From contig CAVYTA010000008.1 of assembly GCA_963771355.1 (NCBI GenBank), forward strand, positions 32,001-96,000: DNA of 64,000 nucleotides, in the 5' to 3' direction. This DNA is from an uncultured Candidatus Rokubacteria bacterium (GTDB lineage Bacteria > Methylomirabilota > Methylomirabilia > Rokubacteriales > CSP1-6). This document shows, piece after piece, positions 30,081-31,287 of this stretch; within the stretch, counting starts at the first letter, position 1; each line of letters opens with the position of its first letter. Made by a program: the position numbers and the translations under genes. The notes below the pieces were generated by a model. The model was not told the origin of the DNA. It made no database searches and saw only the letters and a program-made list of their open reading frames with translations.

Positions 30081-30169
30081 GCCGGCGGCTGAAAAAGGCC
30101 CATCTGCGTCGTTGGCGCCCTCGGCCGCACGCTGGGCAAGCCCACACTCAACGTAGAGAGACTACGCCT
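30081..30169. repeat. Left half of a 142-bp REP/MITE-like palindromic element interrupted by IS110
   Basis: 30081-30108 is an inverted repeat of 31313-31340 (24/28 identical); internal arms pair with the right half. Confidence 0.8.
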
Positions 30170-30182
30170 TGTATGTTGGGTG

Positions 30183-30345
30183 GGGGCGCCAGTCAGCGAC
30201 GCCCCGGTAAGGCGGACGGAAGCCCGCACACGCCTGGGTCCTCGAAGACCGTACGCGAGCTCGGTGCTCCGTCCGCTGTTCCATCGTTAACCCGAACAGT
30301 CACTTGGGCCGCGGGAGCCCGCATGCAAGGACGGGACATGGAACA
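30183..30345 (+). ncRNA. IS110 bridge RNA (5' hairpin, target-binding loop, donor-binding loop)
   Basis: Two stem-internal-loop-stem modules whose loop strands match the target (ACGCCT; GTACGCGAG) and the donor junction (ACAGTCACT; GCATGCAAG); ends inferred. Confidence 0.82.
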
Positions 30346-31270
30346 GATCATCGTGGGCATCGATATTGCCAAGAAGCGGTTGGACGTCCATGTGCGGCCG
30401 CAGGCAGAGACCTTTGCGGTGGCCGCGGACGAGACGGGAGTGCAGGACCTGGTAACGCGGCTGCAGGGGCTGGCCCCCCGCCTGGTGGTGTTGGAAGCGA
30501 CCGGCGGGTACGAAGTGCCGGTCGCGGCGGCGCTGGCCGGTGCGGGCCTGCCGGTGGCCGTGGTCAATCCTCGACAGGTGCGAGACTTTGCGCGAGCGAC
30601 GGGACGCCTGGCGAAGACCGATGTCCTCGATGCGCAGATGCTGGCGCTTTTCGGCGAGGCGGTGCGCCCCCCCGTCCGGGCTCTGCCCGACGAGCAGGCG
30701 CAGAAGCTGGCGGAACTCGTGGTGCGGCGGCGCCAGTTGGTCGAGATGCTGGCGGCGGAGACGAATCGGCAGCGGCAGGCGCGGGAGCCACGGGTCCGGC
30801 AGCGAATCGCCGCGCACCGAGAGTGGCTGCGGGCGGCCTTGCAGGAACTCGAGCGCGATTTGCGGGCGACGATTCGCGGGAGCGGGATCTGGCGGGAGCG
30901 GGAGGAGGTGCTGAAGTCCGTCCCCGGGGTCGGGGATGTGACAGCGCAGACGCTCATCGCCGAGCTTCCCGAACTGGGCCAGCTGGATCGCCGCCGGATC
31001 GCGGCACTGGTGGGTATTGCGCCCCTGAACCGAGACAGTGGCACGTTCCGAGGACGCCGCATGATCGGCGGCGGGCGCGCGGCGGTTCGCACCGTCCTCT
31101 ACATGGCCGCGATCACCGCGATCCGCTGCAACGCGGTGATCGCCGCGCAATATCAACGTCTCGTCGCCGCCGGCCGGCCCGGCAAGGTGGCGCTGGTCGC
31201 CGCAATGCGGAAGCTATTGGTCATCCTCAACGCCATGGTCCGGGATGGCCGTCGTTGGGAACTGGCTTGA
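30338..31270 (+). CDS. IS110 family DEDD recombinase/transposase (310 aa)
   Basis: GIDIAK, LEATG, KTDVLDA (DEDD); [16 protein letters not shown] serine motif; AAMRKL. Confidence 0.96.
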
Positions 31271-31272
31271 CT
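31267..31272 (+). promoter_or_regulatory. -35 hexamer (TTGACT) of the IS110 circle-junction promoter; pairs with -10 TATGTT at 30172-30177
   Basis: Joining the ends at CT gives TTGACT-17 nt-TATGTT. Confidence 0.75.
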
Positions 31273-31287
31273 CGCGACACAGTCGCT

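Follow-up and report, generated by a model that had tools for sequence, protein, structure and literature searches.

An IS621-type IS110 element, probably mobilised by bridge-RNA-guided recombination, occupies two copies of a palindromic host repeat in an uncultured Candidatus Rokubacteria bacterium

The window, as we call the whole 64,000-nt stretch of DNA analysed here, contains an insertion sequence of 1120 bp with both cores counted (30168–31287), in which a recombinase gene is flanked by a left end of 168 nt (30170–30337) and a right end of 15 nt (31271–31285), with the RNA gene located in the long left end (Table 1). This is not the layout of the IS1111 group, which has a short left and a long right end according to a figure legend in PMC11208160. 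The recombinase contains the Pfam domains PF01548 and PF02371, matches the NCBIfam model NF033542 with 223 bits (cutoff 140), and aligns over its full length with the recombinases of IS621 (E = 3e-42) and ISCro4 (E = 8e-43). Residues D9, E53, D95, D98 and S234-G235 correspond to D11, E60, D102, D105 and S241-G242 of IS621 (IS621 residues as given in PMC11208158), and the ORF is uninterrupted, which bears out the intact DEDD plus Ser enzyme proposed in a preliminary description of this DNA. The 90% protein cluster to which it belongs has 27 members, none of them named, and the closest named relatives, at 86% and 82%, are from Candidatus Rokubacteria. A protein of 315 aa is called for 13 of the 15 cluster members listed, likely from an in-frame ATG at 30323–30325, which lies inside the right donor guide and is created by the loss of a bulge; alignments of homologs favour the start at 30338.

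Table 1. Features of the element and of the host repeat that it interrupts (window positions)
Feature	Position	Strand	Basis or remark
Left half of host palindromic (REP/MITE-like) repeat	30081..30167	+	Ends in left target positions 1–7 (30161–30167)
15-bp extra in window repeat copy	30133..30147	+	12 bp like fused IS3-family ends, plus 3-bp duplication-like tail
Target hairpin, 5-bp stem, 5-nt loop	30152..30166	+	3′ arm is left-target positions 2–6
Left CT core	30168..30169	+	Motif check, second copy, empty sites
Predicted -10 box TATGTT	30172..30177	+	17 nt from the -35 box only in the circle junction
5′ hairpin of predicted bridge RNA	30183..30205	+	Motif check and fold; outside the range of the covariation test
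Target-binding loop	30211..30277	+	Outer stem; inner stem 30237–30240/30247–30250; homolog alignment and covariation
Donor-binding loop	30291..30335	+	Closing stem; inner stem 30306–30309/30317–30320; homolog alignment and covariation
IS110 recombinase, 310 aa	30338..31270	+	ORF without stops, Pfam/NCBIfam matches, alignment to IS621
Predicted -35 box TTGACT	31267..31272	+	Overlaps the stop codon
Left donor positions 1–7 and right CT core (31286–31287)	31279..31287	+	
Right half of host repeat	31288..31340	+	Starts with right target positions 10–14; abuts TAG stop of convergent downstream gene

The CT cores proposed at both ends, and every motif quoted for the element in the preliminary description, were found in place. 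The genome holds exactly one other copy (G000 C6:2706549..2705430, minus strand), which had been overlooked; it is 100% identical and has the same ends. There are no differences between the copies inside 30168–31290, and since the second copy departs from the window only in the flanking repeat, it confirms the element ends independently. The core is repeated at both ends of the element and is single in the empty site, as seen from the second copy and from 11 intact empty copies of the host repeat. Of four independent studies of soil DNA, three yielded contigs that run across the entire element with 0–1 differences, which argues against an assembly artefact; in the fourth, two pieces cover it.

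Both copies of the element break the same base of a palindromic repeat of approximately 125 bp that forms a long hairpin, a multicopy target that had likewise escaped the preliminary description. The repeat is found at 15 places in the genome, of which two are occupied by the element, 11 are intact with an uninterrupted site and one core, one is split by an IS3-family element and one is a right half; the copy in the window has an alpha/beta hydrolase gene on one side and a gene for an LLM-class oxidoreductase on the other, the two being convergent. It is present in 30 of the 61 genomes searched, a set that includes the element's own genome, and all seven further genomes from this genus have it. 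The closest relatives (L081, L001, L042, L082, L083, L084, L195 and L196, the last with its left end only) are likewise inserted at this base of the repeat family, and a pattern search of 190 homolog loci found no empty repeats. Among the empty sites in the genome there is no exact match to the 14-bp target, with four sites one base off, while the 11-bp address formed by target positions 4–14 occurs at six empty sites, three of them inside repeats.

The repeat is used by two IS families, with insertion points about 20 bp apart. The IS3-family element in another repeat copy (G000 C6:1227613–1228872, L193) is 1260 bp long, has TG..CA inverted ends and a 4-bp duplication, and encodes HTH_21 and rve domains in a frameshifted frame. 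It occupies the same repeat position as the 15-bp extra of the window copy, which resembles its fused ends and is, judging by its sequence, likely an excision scar. Sequencing runs X5 and X7 contain IS3 ends at the position of this extra, and X7 and X13 contain a variant that makes its 3-bp duplication perfect. Several repeat copies start directly after CTA. The lone right half (G000 C2:123381–123435, L194) starts at the core without an adjoining IS110 element, and is possibly the product of a rearrangement at the core. In genome G006, which has at least two guide variants (L195, L196), the left and right flanks of L195 come from different repeat subtypes, which suggests recombination between element copies.

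The preliminary description placed two internal-loop modules in the left end and proposed a covariance model of homologous left ends as a check. The fold of the window's RNA as a single sequence is no better than chance (z = -0.61, with 48 of 200 shuffles as good), and the two-loop structure thus rests on homologs. RNAalifold applied to 34 left ends gave the two-loop fold, with compensatory changes in 13 of 26 pairs and a covariation score of 0.319 that was reached by none of 500 shuffles and compares with 0.05–0.12 in slid controls. Almost all of this signal comes from the target loop; the stems of the donor loop are nearly invariant and show conservation rather than covariation. The covariance model matched 47 of 47 held-out IS110 loci and neither of two non-IS110 loci, and both modules are thereby upheld as a conserved fold. 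Its match in the window extends over 30207–30338, and across the genome it detected the RNA at the two element copies only, with no stand-alone copy; no Rfam family was matched anywhere in the window. Without constraints the guides fold onto each other; freeing them takes 7.6 kcal/mol, and the loops would therefore need bound protein to stay open. One homolog locus contains two copies of the bridge-RNA region side by side in inverted orientation (L080:913–1037 on the minus and 1056–1180 on the plus strand), which could be an assembly artefact.

Whether loop sequences covary with insertion sites, the check put forward in the preliminary description, was examined in 190 loci, of which 162 had a full-length gene on the plus strand and 111 had both donor-motif anchors (the left anchor being absent in 34 loci and the right in 27). 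Removal of exact duplicates left 109 elements, and with one per distinct target-guide pair and the window's own element left out, 92 pairs remained. Element ends were located through the donor motifs, which leaves the flanks independent of the target guides, but the anchors predetermine the core and a large part of the donor, and neither counts as independent evidence. Guide registers were set by alignment, with some rows visibly shifted by one, which makes the test conservative. Outside the core, 787 of 1104 positions matched, as compared with a permutation mean of 362 and a maximum of 415, a strong outcome in favour of the proposal. Right-guide positions 10–14 matched in 88, 87, 79, 70 and 75 of the 92 pairs (27–30 when permuted) and left-guide positions 2–7 in 38, 51, 60, 72, 72 and 78 (23, 26, 27, 32, 33 and 66 when permuted), counts that were reached by none of 2000 permutations, while matches at target positions 1, 15 and 16 were at chance in the 92 pairs (position 1: 17/92 vs 17.1). 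For the donor, covariation is seen at left-guide positions 3, 5 and 6, and of the 86 rows that could be scored, 85 have an RNA base that pairs with donor position 14. The permutations ignore kinship and so overstate significance, although kinship is unlikely to cause an effect this large. It could be argued that guide-like matches arise by chance in DNA of 70% GC and that the protein does the targeting, since just 6 and 7 nt match in the two target guides of the window and the single-sequence fold is not significant; the excess of matches over every permutation refutes this at the level of the family, and we consider it extremely unlikely.

The covariation also sets the extent of the guides in the window, and the pairing described previously holds for all four of them, with altered limits. 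In the left target guide the ACGCCT at 30230–30235 matches as proposed, but the guide comprises 9 nt in register (30227–30235), of which six are matched (positions 4–9) and positions 1–3 mismatched. The right target guide pairs at 7/7 and is 7 nt long (30253–30259) rather than 9, as target positions 15 and 16, which include the wobble noted earlier, match in 14/92 and 17/92 pairs against 15.1 and 20.1 when permuted. Likewise, the right donor guide pairs at 7/7 with one G-T wobble and without a bulge over 7 nt (30323–30329) instead of the 9 nt previously drawn, the RNA base facing donor position 15 having no pairing pattern; the outer two bases assigned earlier to each right guide are thus incidental. 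The left donor guide, given as 30296–30304, does match the left donor, but is 8 nt long (30296–30303), as position 9 matches in 22 of 92 pairs only; it is matched at 7/8, with a mismatch at position 7. The IS621 donor had been quoted as very similar to the present one; in that form it does not occur in the main text of PMC11208160, and at positions 1–5 the likeness is presumed. Two of the relatives have poorer fits, with a right guide exact at 4/7 plus two wobbles in L001, and at 4/7 in L195, whose two flanks belong to unlike repeat types; both elements could have inserted off target or been rearranged later. One contig from an RNA run (X16, record 13, window 30204–30304) carries a relative's target loop, altered at right-guide position 14 and accompanied by a 5′ hairpin that differs from the window's.

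The bulge-less right donor guide, the handshake bases, the junction promoter and the target hairpin all extend the preliminary description. Among the 109 elements, the right donor guide has a bulge of 2 nt in 56, 3 nt in 30, 5 nt in seven, 1 nt in six and 4 nt in one, with six unscored, and a bulge is absent in three (the window element, L001 and L042); it is also absent in L081, L195 and L196. The predicted handshake bases are 30260–30261 in the target loop and 30330–30331 in the donor loop. C30260 can pair with donor position 7 (G) and G30330 with target position 7 (C), while neither can pair with its own substrate, and in neither loop of the window element does the second handshake base pair. 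In IS621, such non-cognate pairing at position 7 favours strand exchange (PMC11208158). In the homologs, pairing between target position 7 and the handshake base of the donor loop occurs in 84/92 against 73.6 when permuted, which none of 2000 permutations reached, and the target-loop pairing is almost invariant (91/92). Joining of the element ends creates a promoter-like site, TTGACT-17-TATGTT, as read from the sequence, and TTG[AC] is found exactly 19 nt ahead of the core in 78 of 92 homologs; no promoter was found in the linear element.

Taken as a whole, the results make it very probable that the locus contains a complete IS110 insertion sequence of the IS621 type, duplicated without change at the same base of a host repeat, and that it moves by bridge-RNA-guided recombination, its activity being what we infer from this analysis. 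Read-through transcription from the neighbouring genes would supply RNA and protein for excision, by analogy with IS621 (PMC13626964). In the resulting circle the joined ends would form the TTGACT-17-TATGTT promoter and raise the RNA level, giving a transcript of about 155 nt from about 30183, as extrapolated from IS621. A recombinase tetramer would bind this bridge RNA, the donor loop reading positions 1–14 of the joined ends and the target loop the 11-bp repeat address (positions 4–14), and strand exchange at the CT core would proceed through a phosphoserine at S234, aided by the position-7 handshakes of C30260 with the donor G and of G30330 with the target C. The complex would thus insert the circle at repeat copies bearing the address, and insertion into intergenic repeats would keep damage near nil. 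A preprint describes single-stranded circles and copy-and-paste transposition for IS621, which would fit the two identical copies found here.

No circle junction was seen in eight runs (four DNA, four RNA), for which contigs were searched, and contigs drop rare forms. Empty-site joints were present in three of four DNA runs, and are not counted as excision, as their short sides of only 20–28 bases can derive from other repeat copies. RNA runs with shares under 0.2 were excluded as evidence. In two runs of one study the contig depth of the RNA region exceeded that of the gene (26.1 vs 5.8, and 43.8 vs 9.0, the deeper being that of a relative's variant), from which we make no claim of expression, since flanking DNA is covered in these runs as well and little can be read from contig depth. 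Two copies only, the lack of circles in these contigs, the donor-guide mismatch at position 7 and the matching sites that are still empty (three in repeats) would all be explained if the element were now inactive or nearly so, and its second copy derived from gene conversion between repeat copies instead of RNA-guided insertion. Yet the ORF and catalytic residues are intact, the two copies are identical though their repeats differ on both sides, and left-donor position 7 is the mismatch-tolerant one in the analysis of PMC11208160, with the same mismatch common to L081, L001, L042, L195 and L196. We consider inactivity improbable, and retain RNA-guided movement as the preferred reading.

The window's repeat can form a hairpin over the left target (Table 1); of the 14 repeat copies that could be scored, 13 have a Watson-Crick pair at its variable position (G-C in five, C-G in eight). 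For the same element, target choice might also hinge on this DNA hairpin, as reported for ISPpu10, in which case it would compensate for the lack of pairing at three distal guide bases, and a single guide could serve both repeat subtypes. Besides the covariation of the variable pair in the 5-bp hairpin over positions 2–6, this is favoured by the six clade guides examined, which all ignore the variable position, and by the presence of 5′ hairpins at 17 of 86 targets outside the clade (2.6 expected). But 3′ hairpins are enriched too (11/86 vs 4.4 expected), as any palindromic repeat would give, position 1 is unpaired family-wide regardless, and the covariation may reflect a function of the repeat itself; addresses in the genome are occupied at 2/5 sites in repeats and 0/3 outside, numbers too small to weigh. 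Distal guides are not weaker in hairpin-bearing elements (1.41 vs 1.13 matches of 3), and hairpins that compensate for weak distal guides thus find no support across the family. These comparisons are weak as tests, and we regard a contribution of the hairpin as possible, though rather doubtful. More speculative still is the wider proposal of a soil-bacterial IS110 subclade in which the right donor guide shrank stepwise (bulge of 2, then 1, then 0), only an 11-bp address is read and the host hairpin acts as a second structural key; if true, sequence-plus-structure targeting would have a second, independent instance, and the element would provide a natural minimal donor loop.

The mechanism was published in 2024; targeting of REPs and right target guides of greater length have also been described, and thousands of RNA-target pairs have been analysed (PMC11208160). 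Our literature search found no paper joining Rokubacteria and IS110, although the supplements of PMC11208160 may list this clade, and none on this palindromic repeat in Rokubacteria, as judged by title or the start of the abstract. With 18 of 72 orthologs giving product and only one being quantifiably active in human cells (10.1101/2025.05.14.653916), ortholog diversity has practical value, and the present element, whose clade lies far from IS621, can enter ortholog screens as a candidate with its protein, RNA, donor and target all specified. Two design rules could be tested cheaply on natural material, through the donor guide without a bulge and the hairpin at the target, and the target of a mobile element in a little-studied lineage is identified as a repeat that a second IS family uses as well.

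The closest IS name among the 20 best plasmid matches is the ISMno7 family of Methylobacterium nodulans, so named in RefSeq (L201; 58% identity), whose left end scores 96.9 bits with our covariance model, but which has other guides and another target, and has kept the bulged right donor guide. ISPpu10 (10.64898/2026.03.19.712850) resembles our element in its REP target, in upstream bases that pair with the left target in a stem-loop of approximately 5 bp, and in a tolerant distal left guide with a stringent right guide, a likeness that rests on target structure and guides. The ISPpu10 stem-loop matters (activity of 43.85% without it), raising efficiency without being able to replace pairing, whereas the hairpin described here is present and covaries. 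ISCro4/IS622 (10.1101/2025.05.14.653916; PDB 9t56) shares the architecture, the 14-base substrates and the handshake guides, but its protein is distant (E = 8e-43 only), and it is experimentally active in human cells, while activity of our element is predicted.

The preliminary assignment to the IS110 group of bridge recombinases with IS621 architecture is upheld, apart from the two guides that were drawn 2 nt too long. As described in PMC11208160, PMC11208158 and PMC13626964 (PDB 8wt6), IS621 likewise has a DEDD plus Ser recombinase, a long left and a short right end, a CT core, a junction promoter, a 5′ hairpin followed by two guide loops, a position-7 handshake and a REP-type target, and in our element donor positions 8–14 correspond to those that PMC11208158 labels for IS621, the G-T wobble at position 12 included. 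In contrast, the proteins are distant (E = 3e-42), the natural right target guide has 7 nt as opposed to 4 in IS621, and the left target guide is matched at 6/9 only, unlike that of IS621. The right donor guide is contiguous, whereas in IS621 two bases are flipped out and nine RNA bases read seven donor bases; donor positions 6–7 are C,G instead of A,T, and the target repeats differ. The element is thus a clean new example of a known RNA-guided element, and not a new mechanism.
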